Shown piece after piece: positions 40,967-54,925 of a DNA stretch of 64,000 nt (position 1 is the first letter of the stretch; each line of letters starts with the position of its first letter). The position numbers were made by a program, and so were the translations under genes. The stretch comes from Lachnospiraceae bacterium. Lineage in GTDB: Bacteria; Bacillota; Clostridia; Lachnospirales; Lachnospiraceae. The DNA lies in NCBI GenBank assembly GCA_017396675.1, contig JAFQLB010000057.1, forward strand, positions 6,771 to 70,770, written 5' to 3'. The notes beneath the pieces were generated by a model. That model was not told where the DNA came from. It did not search any database and was given only the letters and a program-made list of their open reading frames with translations.

Positions 40967-40984
40967 TTGTTAATTCTTTAACAA
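40967..40984. promoter_or_regulatory. Putative Rex (NADH/NAD+ sensing repressor) operator
   Basis: TTGTTAATTCTTTAACAA is a perfect 7-4-7 inverted repeat, TTGTTAA-N4-TTAACAA. As I recall, this is the Clostridia variant of the Rex box TTGTGAA-N4-TTCACAA. It covers the -35 element. Confidence 0.6.
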
Positions 40985-40995
40985 TATGATAAAAT
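40967..40995 (+). promoter_or_regulatory. Putative promoter of the mdh-hdr-flx-frd-fum operon
   Basis: TTGTTA (40967-40972), a 17-nt spacer, then TGA-TAAAAT (extended -10, 40990-40995), 43 nt upstream of ATG 41038. Confidence 0.55.
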
Positions 40996-41037: not shown

Positions 41038-42051
41038 ATGAATCAGAAAACCACAAACAAAATCGTTGTCGTAGGCGCAGGAAAGGTAGGGGAGGCCATT
41101 TGCTACACATTGATGTTAAAAATACAGGTCAGCGAGATCGTCATCATCGATGTGGATGAGGAGAGGGCGGAGGGCGCCGCTATGGATATCTCCCACGGTA
41201 CTGCCTATTACAGCCAGGTTAGGATCCGCCAGGGCGGATATGAGGAGTGCGCCGACGCAGCAGCGATTATAGTTACGGCGGGAATTCCCAGAAAACCGGG
41301 TCAGACAAGACTGGATCTGGCCAAGGTAAATACTTCCGTGGCAAAGAGCGTAGCAAGAAACATTATGCAGTATGCCGAGAATCCGCTGATCATCGTGGTG
41401 GCCAATCCGGTAGATGTGAATACATATTTGATCCGTAAGGAGACGGGACTGCCGGCGGGACGCGTCATCGGAACGGGAACCTCTCTGGATACCGCCCGTT
41501 TTCGCTTCCTGATCAGTGAGCTTTGTCATGTGGATGTACGGGATGTCCAAGGGTACATACTGGGAGAGCACGGAGATGCACAGGTGCCCATCTGGAGCGG
41601 TGTGAATGTTGCGGGAGAACCCATTGAGAACTTCCTTCCCATGGCACCCGATCATTGGGAAAAGATAAAAAGTGAAATTGCTGACAAGGCCAAGTCCGGC
41701 GGTGCCGATGTTATTTCCTTGAAGGGAGCCACCTTTGAGGGTATTGCAATGGCTACACTGCGCATCATAGAAGCGATTATCAAGGATCAGAACACGGTGC
41801 TTCCCGTAGCCCATGTACTGGGAGAGGAATACGGGGAGATGGCAGATTCCTGCATCAGTCTGCCATGTGTGATCAACAGCGAGGGAATTTCCAGGGCTCT
41901 GCAGCTGACCATGTCGAAATATGAGGAGCAGCAGATGATCCAATCTGCTCTTACTTTGAAGAGGTTTATCCGGAGTGTCTGCGGAGAGGATGAGGGCAGC
42001 GGAGAGAAGAAGACGAAGGAAACAAAGGAAACAAAAGAAACAAAAAAGTAA
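41038..42051 (+). CDS. mdh: LDH-family 2-hydroxyacid dehydrogenase with MDH-type Arg at the substrate-discriminating position (probable malate dehydrogenase)
   Basis: Contains VVVGAGKVG, LDTARFRF and GEHGD. The loop reads AGIPRKPGQTRLDL, with Arg (codon 41290-41292) where lactate dehydrogenases have Gln. There is a C-terminal KETKETKETKK tail. Confidence 0.8.
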   Translation: MNQKTTNKIVVVGAGKVGEAICYTLMLKIQVSEIVIIDVDEERAEGAAMDISHGTAYYSQVRIRQGGYEECADAAAIIVTAGIPRKPGQTRLDLAKVNTSVAKSVARNIMQYAENPLIIVVANPVDVNTYLIRKETGLPAGRVIGTGTSLDTARFRFLISELCHVDVRDVQGYILGEHGDAQVPIWSGVNVAGEPIENFLPMAPDHWEKIKSEIADKAKSGGADVISLKGATFEGIAMATLRIIEAIIKDQNTVLPVAHVLGEEYGEMADSCISLPCVINSEGISRALQLTMSKYEEQQMIQSALTLKRFIRSVCGEDEGSGEKKTKETKETKETKK

Positions 42052-42109: not shown

Positions 42110-42898
42110 ATGGTGTATAGTTACTATCCGGGATGTACCTTAAAGAATAAGGCACAGGATCTGGACAAGTATGCCAGAATGTCGGCTGAGGCTCTGGGAT
42201 TTACCCTGGAGGAGATTCAGGAGTGGCAATGCTGCGGCGCCGTGTATCCCATGGCGACGGACGAGATTGCCACCAAGCTCTCCGCAGTACGGGCCTTAAA
42301 CGACGCAAAGGAGAAGGGGCAGGATCTTGTGACACTTTGCTCTGCCTGTCATCATGTGATCAAACGTGTCAATGATGATATGCAAAACGTGGAGGACATC
42401 CGGACCAGGGCAAACAACTACATGGAATTGAAGGAGCCCTACAGCGGAGAAACGAAAGTACTGCATTTTCTGGAGGTGATCAGAGACCGGATCGGTTTTG
42501 ACGCGCTGAAGGAGAAGGTGGTGAAGCCGTTAACGGGAAGAAAGATTGGTGCGTATTACGGCTGTATGCTGCTCCGCCCCGGCAATATCATGGCTTTTGA
42601 TGATCCGGAAAACCCCACCATCATGGAGGATTTCATCAGTGCTCTGGGAGCGGAAGCCGTAGTGTATCCGTACCGCAACGAATGCTGCGGAGGTTATATC
42701 TCCCTGAAGGATAAGGAACTGCCGGGCAAACTGGTAGACCAGGTGATGGCCTCCGCCGCTTATAAGGGTGCAGAGGAATTGATCACCGCCTGTCCTCTCT
42801 GTCTCTACAATCTGAAGCACAGCGGCAGCGGAAAGAAGCTGACGGTCTCCTATATCACGGAGCTGTTGGCAGAAGCACTGGGAGTAAAGGAAGAATAG
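42110..42898 (+). CDS. hdrB: HdrB-like protein with two CCG domains
   Basis: Two complete C...CCG...CxxC motifs are present: C9/C41-C42-G43/C77xxC80, and GC...CCGG...CPLC. Confidence 0.85.
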   Translation: MVYSYYPGCTLKNKAQDLDKYARMSAEALGFTLEEIQEWQCCGAVYPMATDEIATKLSAVRALNDAKEKGQDLVTLCSACHHVIKRVNDDMQNVEDIRTRANNYMELKEPYSGETKVLHFLEVIRDRIGFDALKEKVVKPLTGRKIGAYYGCMLLRPGNIMAFDDPENPTIMEDFISALGAEAVVYPYRNECCGGYISLKDKELPGKLVDQVMASAAYKGAEELITACPLCLYNLKHSGSGKKLTVSYITELLAEALGVKEE

Positions 42899-42909: not shown

Positions 42910-43302
42910 GTGCATAAAACAGAAAAAGATAAGGCTATACTGCTGAGAGAAATGAGCGGTGCCAATGTGGACAAATGTATGAAATGCGGAAAGTGTTCCG
43001 CCTCCTGCCCGTCTTATGACGAAATGGACATCCGGCCCCATCAGTTCGTCTCCTACGTACAGAATGAGGATGTAGAGGCACTGCTGGAATCGAAAAGTCT
43101 CTGGAAATGTCTTTCCTGCTTTGCATGTGTGGAACGCTGTCCCAGAGATGTAAAGCCCGCCATGATCATTGAAGCGGTTCGCCAGATGGTGGTTCGTCAG
43201 AGAGGCGGCAACTATCTGTTGCCCGATGAAGTGCCGGAGCTTTTGGACGAAGAGCTGCCTCAGCAGCTTTTGGCAAGTGCATTCAGGAAGTACAGTAAAT
43301 AG
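42910..43302 (+). CDS. hdrC: HdrC-like 2x[4Fe-4S] ferredoxin subunit
   Basis: CMKCGKCSASCP and CLSCFACVERCP are present. The GTG start is tentative; an internal ATG at 42952 is possible. Confidence 0.8.
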   Translation: MHKTEKDKAILLREMSGANVDKCMKCGKCSASCPSYDEMDIRPHQFVSYVQNEDVEALLESKSLWKCLSCFACVERCPRDVKPAMIIEAVRQMVVRQRGGNYLLPDEVPELLDEELPQQLLASAFRKYSK

Positions 43303-43310
43303 GAGAAAGG

Positions 43311-45311
43311 TTGGAGGTGAATCAAGTGCAAAGAATCGGTGTATTTGTCTGCCATTGCGGAACAAATATCGCGGCCACGGTGGATATCAAGCGGGTATTG
43401 GAAGCGGCAGCGAAGGAGCCCGGCGTCGTTCATGCGGAAGACTATCAGTACATGTGTTCCGAAGCCGGCCAGCAGAAGGTTCGCGAGGCGATCAAAGAAA
43501 AGCAGCTTACGGGAGTCGTGGTTTGTTCCTGTTCTCCCCGTATGCATGAGAATACGTTCCGGGGAGCTGCCCAGAAGGCAGGACTCAATCCTTACATGGT
43601 TGAGATTGCCAATATTCGGGAGCATGTATCATGGATTCATAAGAATATAGAAGAAGGAACGGAAAAGGCCATCATCCTGACAAGAGCAGCCATTGCCAAG
43701 GTCATGCTGAATGCACCGCTGCAGGCAGGTCAAAGCAAGGTTGTAAAACGGGCATTGGTGATCGGCGGAGGTATTGCCGGTATTCAGACGGCACTGGATA
43801 TAGCAGATGCGGGATACGAGGTGGATATCGTGGAGAAAACACCCAGTATCGGAGGCAGAATGTCTCAGCTGGATAAAACATTCCCTACGCTGGACTGCTC
43901 AGCCTGTATTCTGACACCTAAAATGGTGGATGCGGCTGCCCATGAAAAGATCACCATCTACACCTACAGCGAGGTGGAGAAGGTTTCCGGCTTTGTGGGA
44001 GATTTCCAGGTGGATATCCGCAAAAAGGCACGCAGCGTGGATATGAGCAAGTGTACCGGCTGCGGTGTTTGTCAGGAAAAGTGTCCTTCCAAAAAGATAC
44101 CCAATGAATTCAACAGGGAGCTTGACAATCGGGCGGCCATCTATACGCCCTTCGCTCAGGCCATTCCCAATGTTCCCGTCATCGACCGGGAGAACTGTAT
44201 CAAGTTCAAGACGGGGAAATGCGGCGTCTGCTCCAAGGTGTGTCTGGCAGGAGCCGTAGATTACGAACAGCAGGATGAGATCGTCAGTCAGAACTACGGA
44301 GCCATTGTAGTGGCCACAGGTTTTGATACCATCAAGCTGGATAAGTATGAAGAGTATTCCTATCAATCGTGTCCCGACGTAATCACCTCTCTGGAGCTGG
44401 AACGTATCATGAATGCTGCCGGTCCTACCAAAGGACATCTGGAGCGTCTTTCAGACGGAAAAGCGCCCAAATCCATGGTATTCATTCAGTGTGTGGGCTC
44501 CAGGTGCGCGGATGAGAGAGGCAAGAGCTACTGCTCCAAGATCTGTTGTATGTATACGGCCAAGCATGCCATGCTGATCCGGGATAAGTATCCCGATGTG
44601 GATGTGACCGTTTTTTATATCGATGTACGGACACCGGGAAAGAACTTTGATGAATTTTACCGCCGGGCAGTGGAAGAATACGGCGTCCACTATATCAAGG
44701 GTCAGGTAGGTAAGGTGGCGGAACATAACGGCAGACTGCTTGTGCAGGGAGCCGATCTGATCGACAACAGACGTATCCTGATGGAAACGGATATGGTAGT
44801 TCTGGCAACCGCCATTGAACCCAATCCGGATGTGAGAAAGATCGCAACGATGCTGACAGCCAGTATCGATACGAACAACTTCCTGACGGAATCCCATGCC
44901 AAGCTGCGTCCCGTAGAGTCGCCTACCGCAGGAATCTTCCTCTCCGGTGTCTGTCAGGGACCCAAGGATATTCCGGAGACGGTGGCCCAGGCAGGTGCGG
45001 CTGCCATCAAGGTAGTGGGTCTTTTGGCCAAGGATTATCTGGTGACCAACCCTTGCGTGGCCAAGTCCGACGAGCTGTACTGCAACGGATGCTCGGCTTG
45101 CGAGAAGGTATGTCCCTACGGTGCCATTTCCTATGAGGACAGAGAGGTAAATGATCATGGAATCCGTGAAGTCAGAAGAGTGGCAAGCGTAAACAGCGCC
45201 CTCTGTCAGGGGTGCGGCGCCTGTACCGTGGCCTGTCCTTCGGGAGCCATGGACTTGCAGGGCTTTTCAAACAGACAAATTCTTGCGGAGGTGGATGCGA
45301 TATGCAGGTAG
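43311..45311 (+). CDS. hdrA: HdrA-like FAD/Fe-S flavoprotein (candidate bifurcating subunit)
   Basis: Contains N-terminal IGVFVCHCG, the FAD fold ALVIGGGIAGIQTALDIADAGYEV, the inserted ferredoxin CTGCGVCQEKCP / CGVCSKVC, and the C-terminal CNGCSACEKVCP / CQGCGACTVACP. The real start may be GTG 43326, which follows GGAGGTG. Confidence 0.88.
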   Translation: MEVNQVQRIGVFVCHCGTNIAATVDIKRVLEAAAKEPGVVHAEDYQYMCSEAGQQKVREAIKEKQLTGVVVCSCSPRMHENTFRGAAQKAGLNPYMVEIANIREHVSWIHKNIEEGTEKAIILTRAAIAKVMLNAPLQAGQSKVVKRALVIGGGIAGIQTALDIADAGYEVDIVEKTPSIGGRMSQLDKTFPTLDCSACILTPKMVDAAAHEKITIYTYSEVEKVSGFVGDFQVDIRKKARSVDMSKCTGCGVCQEKCPSKKIPNEFNRELDNRAAIYTPFAQAIPNVPVIDRENCIKFKTGKCGVCSKVCLAGAVDYEQQDEIVSQNYGAIVVATGFDTIKLDKYEEYSYQSCPDVITSLELERIMNAAGPTKGHLERLSDGKAPKSMVFIQCVGSRCADERGKSYCSKICCMYTAKHAMLIRDKYPDVDVTVFYIDVRTPGKNFDEFYRRAVEEYGVHYIKGQVGKVAEHNGRLLVQGADLIDNRRILMETDMVVLATAIEPNPDVRKIATMLTASIDTNNFLTESHAKLRPVESPTAGIFLSGVCQGPKDIPETVAQAGAAAIKVVGLLAKDYLVTNPCVAKSDELYCNGCSACEKVCPYGAISYEDREVNDHGIREVRRVASVNSALCQGCGACTVACPSGAMDLQGFSNRQILAEVDAICR

Positions 45312-45748
45312 AGAACAAAAAGGAATTTCAACCGAAAATCGTGGCATTCTGCTGTAATTGGTGCAGCTATGCGGGCGCAGACCTGGCCGGAAGCAGCCGT
45401 CTTGCCTATCCGGCCGACGTTAAGATCATTCGCGTTCCCTGTTCCTGCCGCGTAAACCCCATGTTTATTCTGCGGGCGTTTCAGCGGGGAGCCGACGGAG
45501 TCATAATGTGCGGCTGTCATCCGGGGGACTGCCACTATACAACGGGTAATTATTATGCCAGAAGAAGAATGACCCTTCTTTTCTCCATGCTGGACTATCT
45601 GGGAGTGGAGCACGGACGCACCCGCGTGGAATGGGTGTCCGCAGCAGAGGGCGTCAAATTTTCCACGGTCATGAATGAGTTTGTGGAAAAAATATATTCT
45701 CTGGGTGAAAACGTAAGATTGGAGGACTTAAGATGCAAAGAGAGCTGA
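45302..45748 (+). CDS. MvhD/FlxD-like [2Fe-2S] protein
   Basis: IVAFCCNWCSYAGADLAG, RVPCSCRV and MCGCHPGDCHY are typical of the methyl-viologen-reducing hydrogenase delta subunit family. It overlaps hdrA by 10 nt. Confidence 0.85.
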   Translation: MQVENKKEFQPKIVAFCCNWCSYAGADLAGSSRLAYPADVKIIRVPCSCRVNPMFILRAFQRGADGVIMCGCHPGDCHYTTGNYYARRRMTLLFSMLDYLGVEHGRTRVEWVSAAEGVKFSTVMNEFVEKIYSLGENVRLEDLRCKES

Positions 45749-46713
45749 TGAACCGAGCAAAAGAACTCCTGATCGACGAAACCGTGGTACGCGTTCTTGG
45801 CTGGAAAAAAGGAGATCTGGGTTACAACCACGAACCGGCCTATTTTGACAGCCCGGAGGAACTGGAAGAGAATTTTGTATACGATGCGTTTTGCGGAGCC
45901 AATTTGAGCAAATATATGATCGAAGCGGGAAAGCAGGAGGGAAAGACGCTGGTCTTTTTAAAGCCCTGTGATACATACAGCTTTAATCAATTGCTGAAGG
46001 AGCACCGGATCAAGCGGGAAAACACATATATCATCGGTGTGGGATGTCGGGGCAATCTGGACATTGATAAGATCAAGGCTGCCGGCATCAAGGGAATCGA
46101 GAGTGTGGATGCGGACGGAGATATGCTGAAGGTAAAAACCGTTTACGGTGAAAAAGAGATGCCTTTCGAAGAGGCGCTTCTGGAACGGTGTCTTGCCTGC
46201 AAGGGAAAAACCCACATGGTATATGATGAGCTGATAGGAGCCGGGGAGAAGGAAGAGGCGGGACCGAAAGGAAACCGTTTTGACAGAGTAAGTGAGCTGG
46301 AAAGTCTGTCTCCGGAGGAGAGGTTTGCCTTTTGGCGCAGTGAACTGTCAAAATGTATCCGATGTAATGCCTGCCGCAATGCCTGTCCGGCCTGCAGCTG
46401 TCTGAAATGTGTATTTGACAGCAATCAGTTCGATTCCAATCAAAAGGCAAATGCGGATACCTTTGAAGAGCAGATGTTTCATATTATCCGTGCCTTCCAT
46501 GTGGCAGGACGCTGTACCGACTGCGGTGAATGCAGCCGTGTCTGTCCTCAGGGGATCCCGCTGCATCTTTTGAACCGTAAATTTATAAAGGATATTAATA
46601 CCCTGTACGGAGAATATCAGGCCGGTGAGGATACCGACAGCCTTGCTCCTTTGACAAATTATACCTTTGAGGATGCGGAGCCGGGGATCGTGGCAGAAAG
46701 GGGGCGGAAATGA
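45733..46713 (+). CDS. Fe-S protein, FlxC-like (2x[4Fe-4S] motifs)
   Basis: Contains CIRCNACRNACPAC and CTDCGECSRVCP. It overlaps the upstream gene by 16 nt. The family assignment is tentative. Confidence 0.6.
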   Translation: MQRELMNRAKELLIDETVVRVLGWKKGDLGYNHEPAYFDSPEELEENFVYDAFCGANLSKYMIEAGKQEGKTLVFLKPCDTYSFNQLLKEHRIKRENTYIIGVGCRGNLDIDKIKAAGIKGIESVDADGDMLKVKTVYGEKEMPFEEALLERCLACKGKTHMVYDELIGAGEKEEAGPKGNRFDRVSELESLSPEERFAFWRSELSKCIRCNACRNACPACSCLKCVFDSNQFDSNQKANADTFEEQMFHIIRAFHVAGRCTDCGECSRVCPQGIPLHLLNRKFIKDINTLYGEYQAGEDTDSLAPLTNYTFEDAEPGIVAERGRK

Positions 46714-47735
46714 TGTATAAGATCGATCAGGCAAGGTTAGGAGAGCTGTTTGCGGCAATTGCCGAAAAGAAAGACCTGTTTCTGCCCGTAAAAAAAGCAG
46801 ATCAGACGGATTTTGCCCTCTGGACAAAAGAGGCGGAAGTGGATCTGGATACCTTAAGAACCGTTAAATCACCAAAGGACTGCTTCTTCCCCCAGAGTGA
46901 AACCCTGTATAACACTTCATTGGAAGAAGGAAAGCTGTCCATCGACGCCGCTGCCCTTTGCGACCGTGACTTTGTGGTATTTGGGATGAGAGCCTGTGAC
47001 GTGCAGGCTGTCAAGGTATTGGACAATGTTTTTCTGGCAGATCCGGTGGACACTTATTATGCCGCCAGAAGAGAGCATGCGGTTCTGGTGGCCGGTGCCT
47101 GTCATGAACCGGAGGAGACCTGCTTCTGTAAGGTGTTCGGCATTGATGCTGCTGCACCGGCTGCGGACGTAGCAACCTGGAGGGTTGGAGAGGCGCTCTA
47201 CTGGAAAGCGCTGACCAAGAAGGGGGAGGCACTTTCGGAGGTCGTGAAGGAGCACCTGACACCAGCAGAAGAGAGTGCAGTGGAAGAAGCCCAGACACAG
47301 ATCAGAAGCATCATAGACAAGCTGCCCTATTCTCACCTGAAGCTGGATGTCTTTAAGGAAACACCTATGATGGAGCTGTTTGACTCTGATCGGTGGGAAG
47401 AGATGTATAAGCCCTGTCTGGCCTGCGGCACCTGTACCTTCGTATGTCCTACGTGCCAGTGCTACGATATCCGGGACTTCAAGACGAAGGACGGTGTACA
47501 GCGTTACCGCTGCTGGGATTCCTGTATGTATTCCGATTTTACGATGATGGCTCACGGAAACATGCGTACCAGCCAGATGCAGAGATTCCGCCAGCGTTTT
47601 ATGCATAAGCTTGTGTATTATCCGGACAATTATGAGGGAATGTTTTCCTGTGTGGGCTGCGGCCGTTGTGTCAGCAAGTGCCCGGCGGCACTGAATATTG
47701 TAAAAGTGATCAAAACAATGGGAGGTGAAGGATAA
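46710..47735 (+). CDS. AsrA / sulfhydrogenase-beta (HydB) / FlxB-like Fe-S protein
   Basis: Contains FGMRACD, ETCFCKVFG, CLACGTCTFVCPTCQCYD and CVGCGRCVSKCP, the architecture typical of the AsrA/HydB family. ATGA-type overlap with the neighbouring gene. Confidence 0.7.
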   Translation: MMYKIDQARLGELFAAIAEKKDLFLPVKKADQTDFALWTKEAEVDLDTLRTVKSPKDCFFPQSETLYNTSLEEGKLSIDAAALCDRDFVVFGMRACDVQAVKVLDNVFLADPVDTYYAARREHAVLVAGACHEPEETCFCKVFGIDAAAPAADVATWRVGEALYWKALTKKGEALSEVVKEHLTPAEESAVEEAQTQIRSIIDKLPYSHLKLDVFKETPMMELFDSDRWEEMYKPCLACGTCTFVCPTCQCYDIRDFKTKDGVQRYRCWDSCMYSDFTMMAHGNMRTSQMQRFRQRFMHKLVYYPDNYEGMFSCVGCGRCVSKCPAALNIVKVIKTMGGEG

Positions 47736-48598
47736 TGGGTGAATGTACCTGCGCAACCGGAACAGGGAATAAAAAACAGGATATACTGATCCCGATGATC
47801 GGTGTGATTACGGATATCCGCACGGAAACGCCGGATGTAAAAACCTTTCGCGTGGTGGGCCGTGACGGAAAAAAGCTGTTTGAGCATATGCCGGGACAGT
47901 GTGCTATGGTTTCCGTACCGGGGGTGGGAGAGGCCATGTTTTCCATCACTTCCTCACCTACCAATACCCAGTTCCAGGAATTCAGCATCAAACGCTGTGG
48001 TGTGCTGACGGATTGCCTTCACGGAATGAGCCCGGGAGACGAGGTGACCGTAAGAGGACCCTACGGAAATGCATTTCCGGTGGAGACAGCTCTGAAAGGA
48101 GAAAATCTTCTGTTCATTGCAGGTGGTATCGGACTTGCACCTTTGCGCTCCGTGATCAATTATGTGCTGGATAAGCGTGAGAATTACGGTACCGTGGAAA
48201 TTCTTTACGGCTCCCGTTCCATGGAGGATCTGGTACAGCTGAAGGAAATTCAGGAAGTATGGTGTAAGACAGAAGGAGTGGATGTATATCTGACCATTGA
48301 CCGGGAACAGGAAGGCTGGAACGGTCATGTAGGCTTCGTTCCCTCTTACCTGAAGGAGATTGGATTTTCTACCAATAAGACAGTGCTGGTCTGCGGACCT
48401 CCGATCATGATCAAGTTTGTACTGTCGGGATTGATGGAAATGGGATTTAAAAGAGAACAGATCTATACGACCCTGGAACTTCGGATGAAATGCGGCATCG
48501 GAAAATGCGGACGGTGCAACATCGGCTCCAAATACGTATGTAAGGACGGTCCCGTATTCCGTTTTGATGAAATCGATGAGTTACCGCCTGAATACTAG
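47735..48598 (+). CDS. FAD/NAD(P)H-binding [2Fe-2S] oxidoreductase (PyrK/AsrB/HydG/FlxA-like)
   Basis: Contains the flavin-binding region AMFSITSSP, the nucleotide fold LLFIAGGIGLAPLRS, and the C-terminal cluster CGIGKCGRCNIG...VCKDGPVF. TAATG overlap with the upstream gene. Confidence 0.8.
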   Translation: MGECTCATGTGNKKQDILIPMIGVITDIRTETPDVKTFRVVGRDGKKLFEHMPGQCAMVSVPGVGEAMFSITSSPTNTQFQEFSIKRCGVLTDCLHGMSPGDEVTVRGPYGNAFPVETALKGENLLFIAGGIGLAPLRSVINYVLDKRENYGTVEILYGSRSMEDLVQLKEIQEVWCKTEGVDVYLTIDREQEGWNGHVGFVPSYLKEIGFSTNKTVLVCGPPIMIKFVLSGLMEMGFKREQIYTTLELRMKCGIGKCGRCNIGSKYVCKDGPVFRFDEIDELPPEY

Positions 48599-48642
48599 AA
48601 GCGGTGTACTGTGACAAATTAAGAAGGAAAGGAACAGTAAAA

Positions 48643-49317
48643 ATGCAGAATATGGTAAATGTTTATTTTTATGGAAAACAGTACTCCGTGCCCGCTGAAC
48701 TTACAATCATGACAGCAATGGAATACGCAGGTTATAAGCTGGTACGGGGCTGCGGGTGCCGTCACGGATTCTGCGGCGCCTGTGCAACAATCTACAGAAT
48801 CAAGGGAAGCAATGAATTAAAGACATGTCTGGCCTGCCAGACGCAGGTGCAGGAGGGGATGTACATCTCCACACTTCCCTTCTTCCCGGCGGATAAGAGA
48901 ACCTATGACATGGAAGAGATCAGCGCCGAGCAGCGTGTCATGATGGAGCTGTATCCGGAGATCTACAGCTGCATCGGCTGTAACGCATGTACCAAGGGAT
49001 GTCCTCAGAGTCTGGAAGTAATGCAGTACATTGCCTATGCACAAAGGGGAGACTTTGCAAAATGTGCGGAGGAATCCTTCGACTGTATCAATTGCGGGAT
49101 TTGTACCTCCAGATGTCCTGCCGGCATTTCCCATCCTATGGTAGGTGTGCTGGCAAGGCGCTTGAACGGCAAATATATCGCGCCCAAAACAGAGCATCTG
49201 GCAGAACGTGTGGAAGCCATCAACAGCGGTGCTTTCGATGAGATCATCGAAAAGGTGATGCAAAAGCCCATCGAAGAGATGAAAGAGCTCTACAACACCA
49301 GAGATATTGAGAAATAA
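48643..49317 (+). CDS. Succinate dehydrogenase/fumarate reductase iron-sulfur subunit-like protein
   Basis: An N-terminal 2Fe-2S-type Cys cluster (CGCRHGFCGACATIY...C) is followed by CIGCNACTKGCP and CINCGICTSRCP. ATG 48643 follows AAGGAAAGGA. Confidence 0.75.
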   Translation: MQNMVNVYFYGKQYSVPAELTIMTAMEYAGYKLVRGCGCRHGFCGACATIYRIKGSNELKTCLACQTQVQEGMYISTLPFFPADKRTYDMEEISAEQRVMMELYPEIYSCIGCNACTKGCPQSLEVMQYIAYAQRGDFAKCAEESFDCINCGICTSRCPAGISHPMVGVLARRLNGKYIAPKTEHLAERVEAINSGAFDEIIEKVMQKPIEEMKELYNTRDIEK

Positions 49318-49331
49318 GGAGGGAAGCGCAT

Positions 49332-50936
49332 ATGTTTACAGCAGAAATGTTGGAATCTATTAAAAAGGTAGAGGCCACAAGAGCCGCCAGGATCGGTGTG
49401 GAGCCGAGAAGAATGACGGCAGAGGAAAAAGATGAGCTTCTCCGCAAATTTCATCCGGATTACAGAGCGGAAGGATTCCAGGAAATCAAAGTCGGGCCTA
49501 ACAAAGGTGAAAAGGCGCCTTACGAGCTGGGAACACTTCTCCACTCCAACAGCCGTCTGTTGGGAGCGCCCATCAATCTGGAGAAGGTGGACTACGATGT
49601 GGACGTACTCGTGATCGGAGGAGGCGGAGCGGGTTCCTCGGCTGCCATTGAAGCACACGAAGCCGGTGCCAATGTCATGCTGGTAACGAAGCTGCGGATC
49701 GGTGACGCCAATACCATGATGGCAGAGGGCGGAATCCAGGCAGCAGACAAAGAAAATGATTCTCCCCAGCAGCATTATCTGGATGCCTTCGGAGGCGGAC
49801 ATTTTGCAGCAAGACCGGAGCTTCTTCGCCGTCTTGTCATGGAAGCACCGGACGCAATCCGTTGGCTGAACGATCTGGGCGTTATGTTTGATAAGGATCC
49901 GGACGGAAGAATGGTAACCACTCACGGAGGAGGAACCTCCAGAAAGCGTATGCATGCCTGTAAGGATTATTCCGGTGCGGAGATCATGCGTGTGCTCAGA
50001 GATGAGGTATGGAACCGTCAGATTCCCGTAGTGGACTTTACAGCAGCCGTAGAGCTGATTATGGACGATCAGGGACAGGTAGCAGGTGCCGTCCTGCAGA
50101 ATATGGAGACGGGCGTATATCTGGTGGCCAGAGCCAAGACCGTGATCATTGCAACGGGTGGCGCAGGAAGGCTGCATTATCAGGATTTTCCTACCTCCAA
50201 CCACTACGGAGCCACGGCCGACGGCCTGGTGATGGGATACCGTGCGGGAGCACCCTTGCTGTATCAGGATACCATCCAGTATCATCCTACCGGCGTAGCT
50301 TATCCTGCACAGATCTTCGGCGCTCTTGTAACGGAGAAGGTACGTTCTCTGGGAGCCATGCTGATCAATGCGGAAGGTGAAGCGTTTATGCATCCTCTGG
50401 AGACCCGTGATGTGTCCGCTGCTTCCATTATCCGGGAATGCAGGGAACGGGGGAAAGGCGTTCCCACACCCACGGGATTTGGAATCTGGCTGGATACTCC
50501 CATGATCGAAATGATTCACGGCGAGGGTACCATAGAGAAGAGGATTCCCGCTATGCTCCGCATGTATTTAAATTATGACATTGATATGAGAAAGCAGCCG
50601 ATTCTGATCTATCCTACGCTGCATTACCAGAACGGCGGTCTGGAGATCGGAGGAGAGGGCTTTACCAAGGCCATTCCCAACCTGCTGGTAGCAGGAGAGG
50701 CAGTGGGAGGCATCCACGGAAGAAATCGTCTCATGGGGAATTCCCTGCTGGATATCATCGTATTTGGCCGTAATGCAGGCAAGGCGGCAGCCGGAAAATG
50801 TAAGGAAGTGACTCTGGGAAGAATGAATCTGGATCATAGTCAGACCTATGCGGAAGAATTAAAGGCAGCCGGACTGGACACACAGGAGGTATCTCCGCTG
50901 CTTCTGCCCAAATATACATTCGGCATGCCCAAATAA
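49332..50936 (+). CDS. Succinate dehydrogenase/fumarate reductase flavoprotein-like FAD protein (soluble)
   Basis: Contains VDVLVIGGGGAGSSAA, ATGGAGRLH, QYHPTG and LMGNSLLDIIVFGRNAG. There is a roughly 85-aa N-terminal extension. No membrane-anchor gene is nearby. Confidence 0.8.
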   Translation: MFTAEMLESIKKVEATRAARIGVEPRRMTAEEKDELLRKFHPDYRAEGFQEIKVGPNKGEKAPYELGTLLHSNSRLLGAPINLEKVDYDVDVLVIGGGGAGSSAAIEAHEAGANVMLVTKLRIGDANTMMAEGGIQAADKENDSPQQHYLDAFGGGHFAARPELLRRLVMEAPDAIRWLNDLGVMFDKDPDGRMVTTHGGGTSRKRMHACKDYSGAEIMRVLRDEVWNRQIPVVDFTAAVELIMDDQGQVAGAVLQNMETGVYLVARAKTVIIATGGAGRLHYQDFPTSNHYGATADGLVMGYRAGAPLLYQDTIQYHPTGVAYPAQIFGALVTEKVRSLGAMLINAEGEAFMHPLETRDVSAASIIRECRERGKGVPTPTGFGIWLDTPMIEMIHGEGTIEKRIPAMLRMYLNYDIDMRKQPILIYPTLHYQNGGLEIGGEGFTKAIPNLLVAGEAVGGIHGRNRLMGNSLLDIIVFGRNAGKAAAGKCKEVTLGRMNLDHSQTYAEELKAAGLDTQEVSPLLLPKYTFGMPK

Positions 50937-50952: not shown

Positions 50953-51795
50953 ATGCGTGAAATTCAGGCACAACAGATTACGGATGTTGTGGAAAAGTTA
51001 TGTATTGAAGCAAACCAGTTTTTGCCAAAGGATGTACAGGGCGCCATCCGACGCTGCCGTGAGTGTGAGGATTGGGATATTGCCAAAGGCGTGCTGGATC
51101 AGATCATCACCAATTTTGAAATTGCGGAAGATGAGCAGGTTCCCATCTGCCAGGATACGGGTATGGCCTGTGTCTTTCTGGAAATCGGACAGGATGTACA
51201 TATCGTTGGCGGAGATCTGAGAGAAGCGGTAGATGAAGGTGTGCGCCGCGGCTATGACAAGGGATATCTTCGTAAATCCGTTGTCAAGGATCCGGTGCGC
51301 AGAGGCAATACGGGAGACAATACGCCGGCCATGCTGTATACGGAAATCGTTCCCGGCGAGAAGATCAAGGTAACGGTGGGACCCAAGGGCTTCGGCAGTG
51401 AAAATATGAGTGCCATTCGCATGTTCAAGCCCTCTGCCGGTATCCAGGGAATCAAGGATTTCATTTTGGAAACAGTGGAAACAGCAGGACCCAATCCATG
51501 TCCTCCCATGGTGGTAGGCGTGGGAATCGGCGGTACCTTTGATAAATGTGCGCTTTTGGCAAAAAAGGCATTGATGAGAAGCACCGACATTCGGAATCCT
51601 GACCCCTATTACGCAGAGCTGGAGGCAGAAATGCTGGAGAAGATCAACAGCCTTGGTATCGGGCCCCAGGGCTTTGGCGGAAAGACTACGGCACTGGCTT
51701 TGAATATCGAAACCTTACCTACCCACATTGCGGGTATGCCTTGTGCCATCAATATCAACTGCCATGTGACACGTCATCAAACGGAGGTGATCTAG
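50953..51795 (+). CDS. fumA: Class I (Fe-S) fumarate hydratase, alpha subunit
   Basis: 280 aa. Contains PICQDTGMA and an Fe-S hydro-lyase (tartrate/fumarate) alpha-type layout. Confidence 0.85.
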   Translation: MREIQAQQITDVVEKLCIEANQFLPKDVQGAIRRCRECEDWDIAKGVLDQIITNFEIAEDEQVPICQDTGMACVFLEIGQDVHIVGGDLREAVDEGVRRGYDKGYLRKSVVKDPVRRGNTGDNTPAMLYTEIVPGEKIKVTVGPKGFGSENMSAIRMFKPSAGIQGIKDFILETVETAGPNPCPPMVVGVGIGGTFDKCALLAKKALMRSTDIRNPDPYYAELEAEMLEKINSLGIGPQGFGGKTTALALNIETLPTHIAGMPCAININCHVTRHQTEVI

Positions 51796-51796
51796 A

Positions 51797-52354
51797 ATGG
51801 AAAAACGTATTCAGCTTCCCTTAACAGAAGAAGTGGCAAAAAGTCTTCGTGCCGGCGACAGTGTATTGCTAACCGGTACCATATATACCTCCCGGGATGC
51901 CGGTCACAAGAGAATGTGTGAAACACTGGCACGTGGAGAGGAGCTTCCCTTCGATCCCAAGGATGCCACCATTTACTATGTGGGTCCTACGCCGGCCAAG
52001 CCGGGTCAGGTCATCGGATCTGCAGGTCCCACCACCAGCGGTCGTATGGATGCTTATGCGCCTACCATGATGTCCGTGGGAGCCAGAGGCATGATCGGCA
52101 AAGGTGCCAGACTTCCCGAAGTGGTGGAAGCCATGAAGAAATACAGCGGCGTATACTTCGGAGCCATCGGCGGTGCAGGCGCCCTTCTTGCAAAGTGCAT
52201 CAAGAAGTGTGAACTGATCGCATACGAGGATCTTGGAGCGGAAGCCCTTCGTGAACTGTATGTGGAGGATATGCCTCTTGTGGTCATTATCGACAGTGAG
52301 GGCCGCAATCTCTACGAAGACGGTAAGGCTGCTTATCTTTCCCGGAAGAAATAG
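51797..52354 (+). CDS. fumB: Class I (Fe-S) fumarate hydratase, beta subunit
   Basis: 185 aa. Contains GTIYTSRDAGHKR, GPTTSGRMD and GKG. It starts 1 nt after the alpha subunit. Confidence 0.85.
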   Translation: MEKRIQLPLTEEVAKSLRAGDSVLLTGTIYTSRDAGHKRMCETLARGEELPFDPKDATIYYVGPTPAKPGQVIGSAGPTTSGRMDAYAPTMMSVGARGMIGKGARLPEVVEAMKKYSGVYFGAIGGAGALLAKCIKKCELIAYEDLGAEALRELYVEDMPLVVIIDSEGRNLYEDGKAAYLSRKK

Positions 52355-53488: not shown

Positions 53489-53611
53489 ATTACTGTAGCA
53501 TTTTTTTGAAAAACAGTGTATATTAGTAAAAAGGCATGTTCACATGCCGTGTTTTTGTGCGGCTTTTTTGTGAATGTCAATATGCGTATAGCAGAAAGGT
53601 ATGGTGTAGAA

Positions 53612-54925
53612 ATGGCAAAACTGACATTTGCCGGGGGGATTCACCCTTACGACGGGAAGGAGTTATCCAAGGATAAGCCGATTACGGATTATCTTCCCAA
53701 GGGAGATTTGGTATATCCCCTGTCGCAGCACATAGGCGCACCTGCAGCACCTATTGTAAAGCCGGGCGATCACGTCAAAACGGGACAGAAGATCGCCGAA
53801 GCAGGAGGATTTGTGTCCGCACCGGTCTACGCAACGGTTTCGGGCACCGTGAAGTCCATTGAACCGAGACGGGTCGTGGTCGGAGATAAGGTGATGTGTA
53901 TTGTGTTGGAGAATGACCATCAATACGAGGAAGTCACCTATGAACCGGGTGATCCGGAAGAAATGTCGAGGGAAGAGATCCTAAGCCGCATCAAGGAGGC
54001 AGGGATCGTGGGAATGGGAGGAGCCGGTTTTCCCACCCATGTGAAATTGTCACCAAAGGAACCGGATAAGATTGATTACGTGATTGCAAACTGTGCCGAG
54101 TGTGAGCCCTATCTTACCTCCGACTATCGCAGGATCTTAGAGGAGCCGGAGAAGGTGGTAGGCGGTCTGAAGACCATTCTGGAATTGTTTCCCAATGCCA
54201 CGGGAATTCTCGGTGTAGAGGATAACAAGCCGGACTGCATTAAGATTTTAAAGGATCTCACCAGAGATGAATCGAGAATCCTTGTTAAAGAATTGGCAAC
54301 CAAATATCCCCAGGGTGCGGAGCGGCAGTTGATTTATGCCACTACCAAGAGGAAGCTGAATTCATCGATGCTGCCTGCTGACGTAGGCTGTGTTGTGAAT
54401 AACGTGGATACGGTAGTGGCGATTTATAATGCCGTGGTTCTGGGAAGACCGCTGATGCACAGGATCGTGACGGTGACGGGAGATGCGGTTGCCGACCCCA
54501 GGAATTTCCGGGTATGCGTGGGTACCAGCTACAAAGAGCTGATGGATGCTGCGGGAGGATTGAAGGCGGAGCCGGAGAAAATCATCTGCGGCGGCCCTAT
54601 GATGGGATTTTCGCTGTTTGAACTGGATGTTCCTACCACCAAGTCTGCCTCTGCCCTGCTTTGTTTGACAAAGGATGAGGTCTCCAGGATGGAGCCGTCT
54701 GCCTGTATCAACTGCGGAAGATGCGTGGAGGCATGTCCCAGTACGTTGGTGCCCAGCAGACTGGCGGATATTGCAGAGCGTCATAATAAGGAAGAATTTG
54801 TCAGACTGGACGGCATGGAGTGCTGCGAGTGCGGATGCTGCAGCTTTATCTGCCCTGCCAAGCGCCATCTGACCCAGAGCATCAAGTCGATGCGTAAAAT
54901 AATTCTGGCGGACAGAAAGAAGTAG
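53612..54925 (+). CDS. rnfC: Rnf complex subunit C
   Basis: Starts MAKLTFAGGIHP. Contains GMGGAGFPTHVK and the ferredoxin motifs CINCGRCVEACP / CCECGCCSFICP. Confidence 0.92.
   Translation: MAKLTFAGGIHPYDGKELSKDKPITDYLPKGDLVYPLSQHIGAPAAPIVKPGDHVKTGQKIAEAGGFVSAPVYATVSGTVKSIEPRRVVVGDKVMCIVLENDHQYEEVTYEPGDPEEMSREEILSRIKEAGIVGMGGAGFPTHVKLSPKEPDKIDYVIANCAECEPYLTSDYRRILEEPEKVVGGLKTILELFPNATGILGVEDNKPDCIKILKDLTRDESRILVKELATKYPQGAERQLIYATTKRKLNSSMLPADVGCVVNNVDTVVAIYNAVVLGRPLMHRIVTVTGDAVADPRNFRVCVGTSYKELMDAAGGLKAEPEKIICGGPMMGFSLFELDVPTTKSASALLCLTKDEVSRMEPSACINCGRCVEACPSTLVPSRLADIAERHNKEEFVRLDGMECCECGCCSFICPAKRHLTQSIKSMRKIILADRKK

Follow-up and report, generated by a model that had tools for sequence, protein, structure and literature searches.

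An 18-bp inverted repeat lies on the promoter of a fumarate reductase operon in a Lachnospiraceae genome, and the question that it raises is whether the repeat is an operator and, if so, which regulator reads it and which genes it serves. The window, by which we mean the whole stretch of 64,000 nucleotides analysed (G000:C11:6771-70770), belongs to the MAG of an uncultured gut bacterium, which has 1,800,632 bases in 120 contigs and is 72% complete. The original prediction, made from the letters of this stretch, was a Rex-type operator. We consider it highly probable that the palindrome at 40967-40984 is the operator of the genome's single Rex protein, placed on the promoter of a 12-gene, NADH-consuming operon that leads from oxaloacetate to succinate.

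The palindrome and its rarity

The intergenic region that holds the palindrome has the following features, in window positions.

40967-40984, no strand assigned: putative Rex-type operator, agreeing with 14/14 specified consensus positions; the sole perfect site
40967-40972, plus strand: -35 hexamer TTGTTA, the left end of the operator (promoter scan, 9/12 matches, 17-nt spacer)
40987-40995, plus strand: extended -10 element TGaTAAAAT (TG at 40987-40988, hexamer TAAAAT at 40990-40995)
40862-40161, minus strand: divergent mgtC-family gene, which starts 105 nt from the palindrome in a shared 175-nt intergenic region

Positions 40967-40984 read TTGTTAATTCTTTAACAA, in which the halves TTGTTAA and TTAACAA flank the centre TTCT; the perfect 18-bp inverted repeat of the form TTGTTAA-N4-TTAACAA that had been claimed here is read directly in the sequence. 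The Rex consensus of Clostridiaceae and Thermoanaerobacterales is cited as TTGTTAANNNNTTAACAA (PMC5367854, PMC8457756, PMC9600882, PMC12044746), and the Clostridia variant named in the original prediction agrees with it as given in three of these papers (PMC5367854, PMC8457756, PMC12044746). The Thermoanaerobacterales consensus is the same box as the window palindrome (PMC12044746). For C. thermocellum Rex, both the consensus and the sites have been validated by DAP-seq and EMSA (PMC8457756).

The assembly was scanned with the pattern TTGTKAA-N4-TTMACAA, which allows T/A or G/C at the fifth half-site position, and boxes were ranked by mismatch count rather than by a curated weight matrix. The whole assembly contains one perfect site, that at 40967-40984, together with 1 site carrying 1 mismatch and 21 sites carrying 2 mismatches. 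In the window, 2 matches have no more than 2 mismatches, whereas dinucleotide-preserving shuffles of its 64 kb give an expectation of 0.13 +/- 0.34. The other match, at 54282 with 2 mismatches, falls within the rnfC coding region, in keeping with the earlier statement that the window has no further full site and has only a half-site upstream of rnfC, a lone TTGTGAA at 53568 without a right half-site partner. This half-site (53568-53574) lies ~40 nt 5′ of rnfC, directly after a hairpin with T-runs (53533-53563), and is not a full Rex box.

Promoter overlap and the divergent gene

The predicted promoter has the form TTGTTA-17-TGaTAAAAT, and the palindrome spans its -35 hexamer and 12 of the 17 spacer bases. 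The match to consensus (TTGTTA, 17 nt, TAAAAT, plus the TG) supports the description of the promoter as well spaced. The start codon of the first gene, at 41038, is 42 nt past the -10 hexamer, and the palindrome lies 54 nt upstream of this codon. Given the transcription start predicted for the operon promoter, a dimer bound to the palindrome would block RNA polymerase.

Such a placement could also arise without any regulatory protein, the palindrome being a chance feature of an AT-rich promoter and TTGTTA merely its -35 element. Local G+C around the palindrome is 21%, the motif is itself AT-rich and its left half, as the -35 hexamer, is constrained for reasons of its own. Against this stands the rarity of the motif: 1.8 Mb contain a single perfect site, and a window of 64 kb should hold about 0.13 matches of at most 2 mismatches. 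The related promoters described below weigh further against chance.

The palindrome might otherwise chiefly control the divergent mgtC-family gene (40862-40161, minus strand), as it lies within the 175-nt intergenic region common to both genes. However, it sits exactly on the plus-strand promoter, the MgtC-family protein has no evident tie to redox balance, and mgtC adjoins the operon in 0 of 84 related loci, whereas the box is kept with the operon. Because mgtC never neighbours the operon in relatives, control of this gene is extremely unlikely, and the operon on the plus strand is taken as the target of the putative Rex operator.

Gene content of the operon

The original prediction placed hdr at the head of the unit. 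On this point it needs correction: the first gene belongs to the LDH family and carries the arginine of malate dehydrogenases, and the unit is mdh-hdr-flx-frd-fum. Its genes, all on the plus strand, are listed here.

41038-42051, plus strand: LDH/MDH-family dehydrogenase, first gene, a probable NADH-dependent malate dehydrogenase (family models, Arg85)
42110-42898, plus strand: HdrB-like protein with two CCG domains (PF02754; TIGR03288 132.9 bits, below cut-off)
42910-43302, plus strand: HdrC-like 4Fe-4S dicluster protein (family assignment)
43311-45311, plus strand: HdrA-like flavoprotein, putative bifurcating FAD subunit (NF040770 HdrA2 777.5 bits, below the cut-off of 1100)
45302-45748, plus strand: MvhD/FlpD-like subunit, FlxD equivalent (PF02662 180.9 bits; ATG at 45302 overlaps the end of hdrA)
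45733-46713, plus strand: FlxC-like Fe-S protein (family assignment)
46710-47735, plus strand: FlxB-like Fe-S protein of the AsrA / sulfhydrogenase beta type (family assignment)
47735-48598, plus strand: FlxA-like FAD/NAD(H)-binding subunit, putative NADH entry point (PF00175, PF10418)
48604-49317, plus strand: SdhB/FrdB/TfrB-like iron-sulfur subunit (family assignment)
49332-50936, plus strand: fumarate reductase flavoprotein, TfrA/FrdA-like (NF004900 323.7 bits, below cut-off; TIGR01812 277 bits)
50953-51795, plus strand: class I (Fe-S) fumarate hydratase alpha (NF004885 421.7 bits, cut-off 276)
51797-52354, plus strand: class I fumarate hydratase beta, last gene of the unit (NF005310 288.8 bits, cut-off 238)

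The 12 genes follow one another in the order mdh-hdrBCA-mvhD-flxCBA-frdBA-fumAB. As the intergenic gaps are at most 58 nt or give way to overlaps, and the next gene is convergent, they most probably form a single transcription unit. By family assignment, these target genes fit NAD(H)-linked fermentation or respiration, with an MDH-type enzyme, the NADH-binding Flx subunit, Hdr proteins, fumarate reductase and fumarase. The operon is predicted to encode every step from oxaloacetate to succinate, and NADH would be used in at least two of them, by the MDH-type enzyme and by the NAD(H)-binding FlxA-like subunit. Coupling of NADH oxidation to the reduction of ferredoxin is proposed for the HdrABC/FlxABCD-type module; how the Hdr/Flx-fumarate reductase complex would work is deduced from the protein families.

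The assignment of the first gene is less straightforward than that of its neighbours. It passes both L-LDH models, TIGR01771 with 331 bits (cut-off 303.55) and NF000824 with 342 bits (cut-off 339), and reaches 282.7 bits with the MDH model NF004863, whose cut-off is 283. The substrate loop, TAGIPRKPGQTR (GIPRKPGQTR), places Arg85 (codon 41290-41292) where LDH has Gln102. In the orthologous operons, 44 first genes have a detectable loop, and every one of them has arginine here. Residue 102 is said to determine specificity, in the classic switch to oxaloacetate attributed to Wilks et al. 1988. The family of the first gene is LDH by sequence, while the specificity residue and the gene context point to a probable malate dehydrogenase. 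The corrected identity strengthens the logic of redox control, because an MDH-type enzyme also consumes NADH. Compared with its counterparts at the head of orthologous operons (L034-L117), the gene shows no more than 33-43% identity, against 53-93% for most other genes, and it looks as if mdh had been replaced in the window by an analogous LDH-branch enzyme. Its protein ends in a low-complexity tail (...GEKKTKETKETKETKK).

The Rex repressor of the genome

A rex gene, whose presence in the genome the original prediction had left for confirmation, lies at G000:C56:18817-19503, on a different contig from the operon. It encodes a protein of 228 aa that scores 319 bits with the NF003990 equivalog model (cut-off 233) and holds the one match in the assembly to the N-terminal, winged-helix Rex DNA-binding domain PF06971 (81.7 bits, domain positions 1-49 of 49). 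The protein aligns end to end with five solved Rex proteins, the best being Thermoanaerobacter Rex 3WG9 (E = 1e-75). Identity to 3WG9 is 59% overall and reaches 30 of 35 residues across the recognition helix and wing, with VTASQIRQDLNNFGGFGQQGYGYN identical, and the recognition regions of the two proteins are near-identical. The C-terminal Rossmann NAD(H)-binding domain has the GxGxxG motif in the form IGAGNLG.

No second strong Rex site was found in the 72%-complete assembly, a point against the Rex reading. Sites with at most 2 mismatches adjoin genes for a diguanylate cyclase, an ABC-F ATPase, chemotaxis receptors and a PTS enzyme I-like protein, or lie inside genes. Upstream boxes with 3 mismatches were seen for rex, for a nox-like flavoprotein gene (C107:8470) and for pckA (C108:4446) and gap (C6:38873); these identities were assigned by eye from translations. 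A wider Rex regulon was considered as support for the operator and rejected, the 2-mismatch sites standing beside non-redox genes and the 3-mismatch boxes being too weak to count.

The weak box upstream of rex, TTGACATACAATTCACAA (G000:C56:18749-18766, L001), has 3 mismatches, lies ~51 nt from the gene and might serve autoregulation. Two pairs of near-identical ~100-nt stretches (G000:C43:3433-3530 with C52:128-225, and C58:24432-24529 with C104:85-182) hold a Rex-like box with 1-2 mismatches in each copy; one pair is located upstream of a chemotaxis-receptor gene, and the stretches are either repeated intergenic elements or duplicated promoters.

Rex-like boxes at orthologous promoters

Orthologous operons were located through HdrA, because the LDH-like first gene is without a close orthologue in relatives (at most 43%); its best matches there are 30-43% identical and are mostly unlinked housekeeping ldh genes. 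The comparison comprises 84 loci, from 4 related genomes and 80 species-collection loci. The named loci come from Blautia, Dorea, Merdimonas, Mediterraneibacter, Schaedlerella, Marvinbryantia, Agathobacter and Faecalimonas, and also from Oscillospiraceae and Christensenellaceae. The order hdrB-hdrC-hdrA-mvhD-flxCBA-frdBA is kept in relatives, usually with an LDH/MDH-family gene first. Gene calls in this comparison are crude, being the longest non-overlapping ORFs, and 41 promoters were evaluable, namely those with an LDH/MDH-type first gene and at least 300 nt of upstream sequence.

Within 300 nt upstream, 23 of the 41 orthologous operons have Rex-like boxes with at most 2 mismatches, 29 boxes in total. 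In 300 dinucleotide shuffles of the same 41 regions, boxes averaged 0.81 +/- 0.90 and never exceeded 4, which makes the observed number a 36-fold enrichment. Box density is 2.36 per kb in the upstream regions, 0.075 per kb in other intergenic DNA of these loci (31-fold less) and 0.033 per kb in the rest of the loci. The palindrome or a near variant of it is therefore present at orthologous promoters far above chance, as would be expected if the original prediction were right, and its conservation is partial, the other 18 of 41 promoters having no box with at most 2 mismatches within 300 nt.

The boxes also occupy a constant place. In about 17 species from at least 10 named genera, the left half is the -35 element, the spacing is 17 nt and t(a/g)TG precedes the -10 hexamer. 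Cultured strains with this layout include Schaedlerella arabinosiphila DSM 106076 (L051), Blautia faecis DFI.3.66 (L054) and Blautia intestinihominis CLA-AA-H95 (L062). Among the related promoters selected for their box, TTG..AA and TT..CAA persist, whereas the N4 centre varies, as do both flanks, which are unrelated. In 15 of 18 such promoters TT..CAA is unchanged, and TT and C-A are found in 18 of 18. Choosing the sites for their box inflates their information content, but they do stand out against the flanks. This conservation of the right half falls within the spacer, at bases for which RNA polymerase shows no preference, and boxes are enriched 36-fold relative to composition-matched shuffles and 31-fold relative to the remaining intergenic DNA. 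The uniqueness of the site in the genome and this footprint rule out, for practical purposes, that the palindrome arose by chance, a reading to which we give almost no credence.

A parallel to the putative Rex operator is found in G031, among the closest operon relatives found (HdrA 84% identical), which has the perfect box TTGTTAATTGATTAACAA at the same promoter position and a second box, with 1 mismatch, nearer the gene. A proximal second box, TTGTTAAAAAATAAACAA and variants of it, occurs near the ribosome-binding site, 15-110 nt before the start codon, in many orthologous operons, including those of G031 (L034, reverse strand), L046, L047, L054, L060, L062, L069, L085 and others. It is absent from the window, which has the promoter box only.

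Some relatives differ from the window in other respects. In G057 (L035:4510-5874) and G023 (L036:4933-6303), a class II fumarase FumC (PF00206 and PF10415) is encoded between mdh and hdrB, and class I fumAB, the pair with which the window operon closes, has no match at either locus; judging from these genes, the pathway appears to be kept by means of a non-homologous fumarase. G032 (L037) and several of L098-L117 have an equally large gap between mdh and hdrB. The closest HdrA relative (90% identical) is on L038, a contig of a bin labelled Prevotella sp. CAG:279; all other close relatives are Clostridia, and the label is probably a binning or labelling error. On L038, a 1-mismatch box lies 83 nt 5′ of hdrB; the 476 nt of sequence available there yielded no mdh.

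Co-occurrence of box and repressor

Presence of the box follows presence of the repressor. A close Rex orthologue (46-67% identity) is encoded in 29 genomes, 22 of which have a box; of the 12 with no Rex match or only a paralogue of 32-35% identity, 1 has a box (Fisher's exact p ~1e-4, uncorrected for shared ancestry, with most genomes being MAGs). G023, a genome of 96% completeness, lacks both a box and any detectable rex; in its locus, an RNase P RNA gene (RF00010, 311 bits, L036:3423-3786) fills the upstream space and ends 35 nt before the mdh start. G057 has rex and no box with at most 4 mismatches within 400 nt of the first gene, so Rex control is common, not universal.

These exceptions bear on whether the palindrome, as a true operator, belongs to another transcription factor with a similar preference for AT-rich inverted or direct repeats. 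In many related promoters, the right half-site is TTGTCAA, TTATCAA or TTGACAA rather than TTAACAA, and with such variant halves the site reads almost as well as a direct repeat, TTGTTAA-N4-TTGTCAA. Besides the case of G057, the MAG L042 has boxes where no rex was found, and the 72%-complete genome of the window yielded no other strong Rex site. The half-site positions that vary in relatives, 4-5, are among the less conserved positions of Rex motifs, and the window palindrome fits none of what we take to be the consensus sequences of FNR/CRP, ArgR, Fur/PerR and CcpA cre boxes. Since the sites of the window and of G031 equal the published Rex consensus at 14/14 specified positions, and the presence of the box tracks that of a close Rex orthologue, we judge a different regulator to be quite unlikely and retain Rex as the protein that reads the site.

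Comparison with known Rex systems

The FrdA proteins of S. suis and Listeria are stand-alone soluble enzymes, and in bacilli and lactic acid bacteria Rex recognizes operators of the form TTGTGAA-N4-TTCACAA. In S. suis, Rex directly represses frdA, as indicated by an EMSA shift and a 6-7.6-fold increase in expression in a rex mutant (PMC6154617), and in a rex mutant of Listeria monocytogenes frdA is 85-fold up (PMC8389512). The logic is the same as that proposed for the window, with Rex holding a fumarate-reducing NADH sink off until NADH accumulates. Both reports describe frdA simply as a gene for a 'fumarate reductase flavoprotein subunit', whereas the flavoprotein of the window is encoded within a 12-gene operon with an HdrABC/FlxABCD-type module.

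Rex operators of the Clostridia type offer a closer likeness, as they share with the window site the consensus (14/14), an intergenic promoter placement and a fermentative, NADH-consuming target. Rex boxes have been predicted in C. pasteurianum (PMC5367854), Caproicibacterium (PMC9600882) and Thermoanaerobacter kivui (PMC12044746). With the regulon surveys Ravcheev 2012 and Zhang 2014 set aside, the papers on Clostridia-type Rex cited here do not name an Hdr/Flx-linked fumarate reductase operon with mdh and fumarase as a target, and with the same two surveys set aside, a literature search found no paper combining Rex with the 'succinate operon'.

That term comes from Pseudoclostridium thermosuccinogenes, whose 'succinate operon' is ~4-fold up under CO2 limitation, a condition read by the authors as NADH excess (PMC7282089). 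It comprises the same gene set as the window operon (fumarate hydratase, Flx-Hdr complex, fumarate reductase), in a different gene order, and the paper mentions neither Rex nor an operator. Induction under NADH excess is the behaviour expected of a Rex-controlled operon. A homologous NADH dehydrogenase / heterodisulfide-reductase-like module, FlxABCD-HdrABC of Desulfovibrio vulgaris, is tied to ethanol metabolism and DsrC in the account of Ramos et al. 2015 given in PMC7282089, and within that account, unlike in the window, it has no link to fumarate reductase.

A model of redox control

By analogy with characterized Rex systems, the following mechanism is proposed. At a low NADH/NAD+ ratio, a Rex dimer on 40967-40984 would cover the -35 hexamer together with 12 of the 17 bases of the spacer, excluding RNA polymerase. 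Rising NADH would bind the Rossmann domains of Rex, the repressor would be released and the operon transcribed, and the transcribed operon would provide the cell with an extra NADH sink. Physical binding of Rex at 40967-40984 and its relief by NADH are thus expected from these characterized systems, and the scheme fits the published induction in P. thermosuccinogenes, the repression of frdA in S. suis and its derepression in Listeria.

Significance

Rex control of fumarate reductase genes is already known from Streptococcus and Listeria, and the window site is very probably an ordinary, well-supported example of it. What it adds is an extension of the predicted Clostridia Rex regulon to the Hdr/Flx-fumarate reductase type of operon, by a kind of regulation that is already familiar. 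This operon, with its soluble fumarate reductase, is widespread in gut Clostridia and biochemically uncharacterized. A conserved candidate Rex operator predicts when the pathway switches on, namely when NADH is in excess, and it agrees with the proposal that the complex acts as an NADH sink.

The TTGTCAA and TTATCAA right halves, together with the proximal second box of relatives, could reflect a changed Rex specificity, or a two-operator mode (looping or roadblock) not described for Rex. Taken jointly, the observations also allow a broader and rather doubtful reading, in which promoter and Rex box form an ancestral unit of the Hdr/Flx-linked fumarate reductase operons of gut Lachnospiraceae and their neighbours, with succinate output gated by NADH/NAD+. 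Succinate is a major gut cross-feeding and host-signalling metabolite, and if this broader reading were true, the succinate output of many gut commensals would be gated directly by the NADH/NAD+ ratio.
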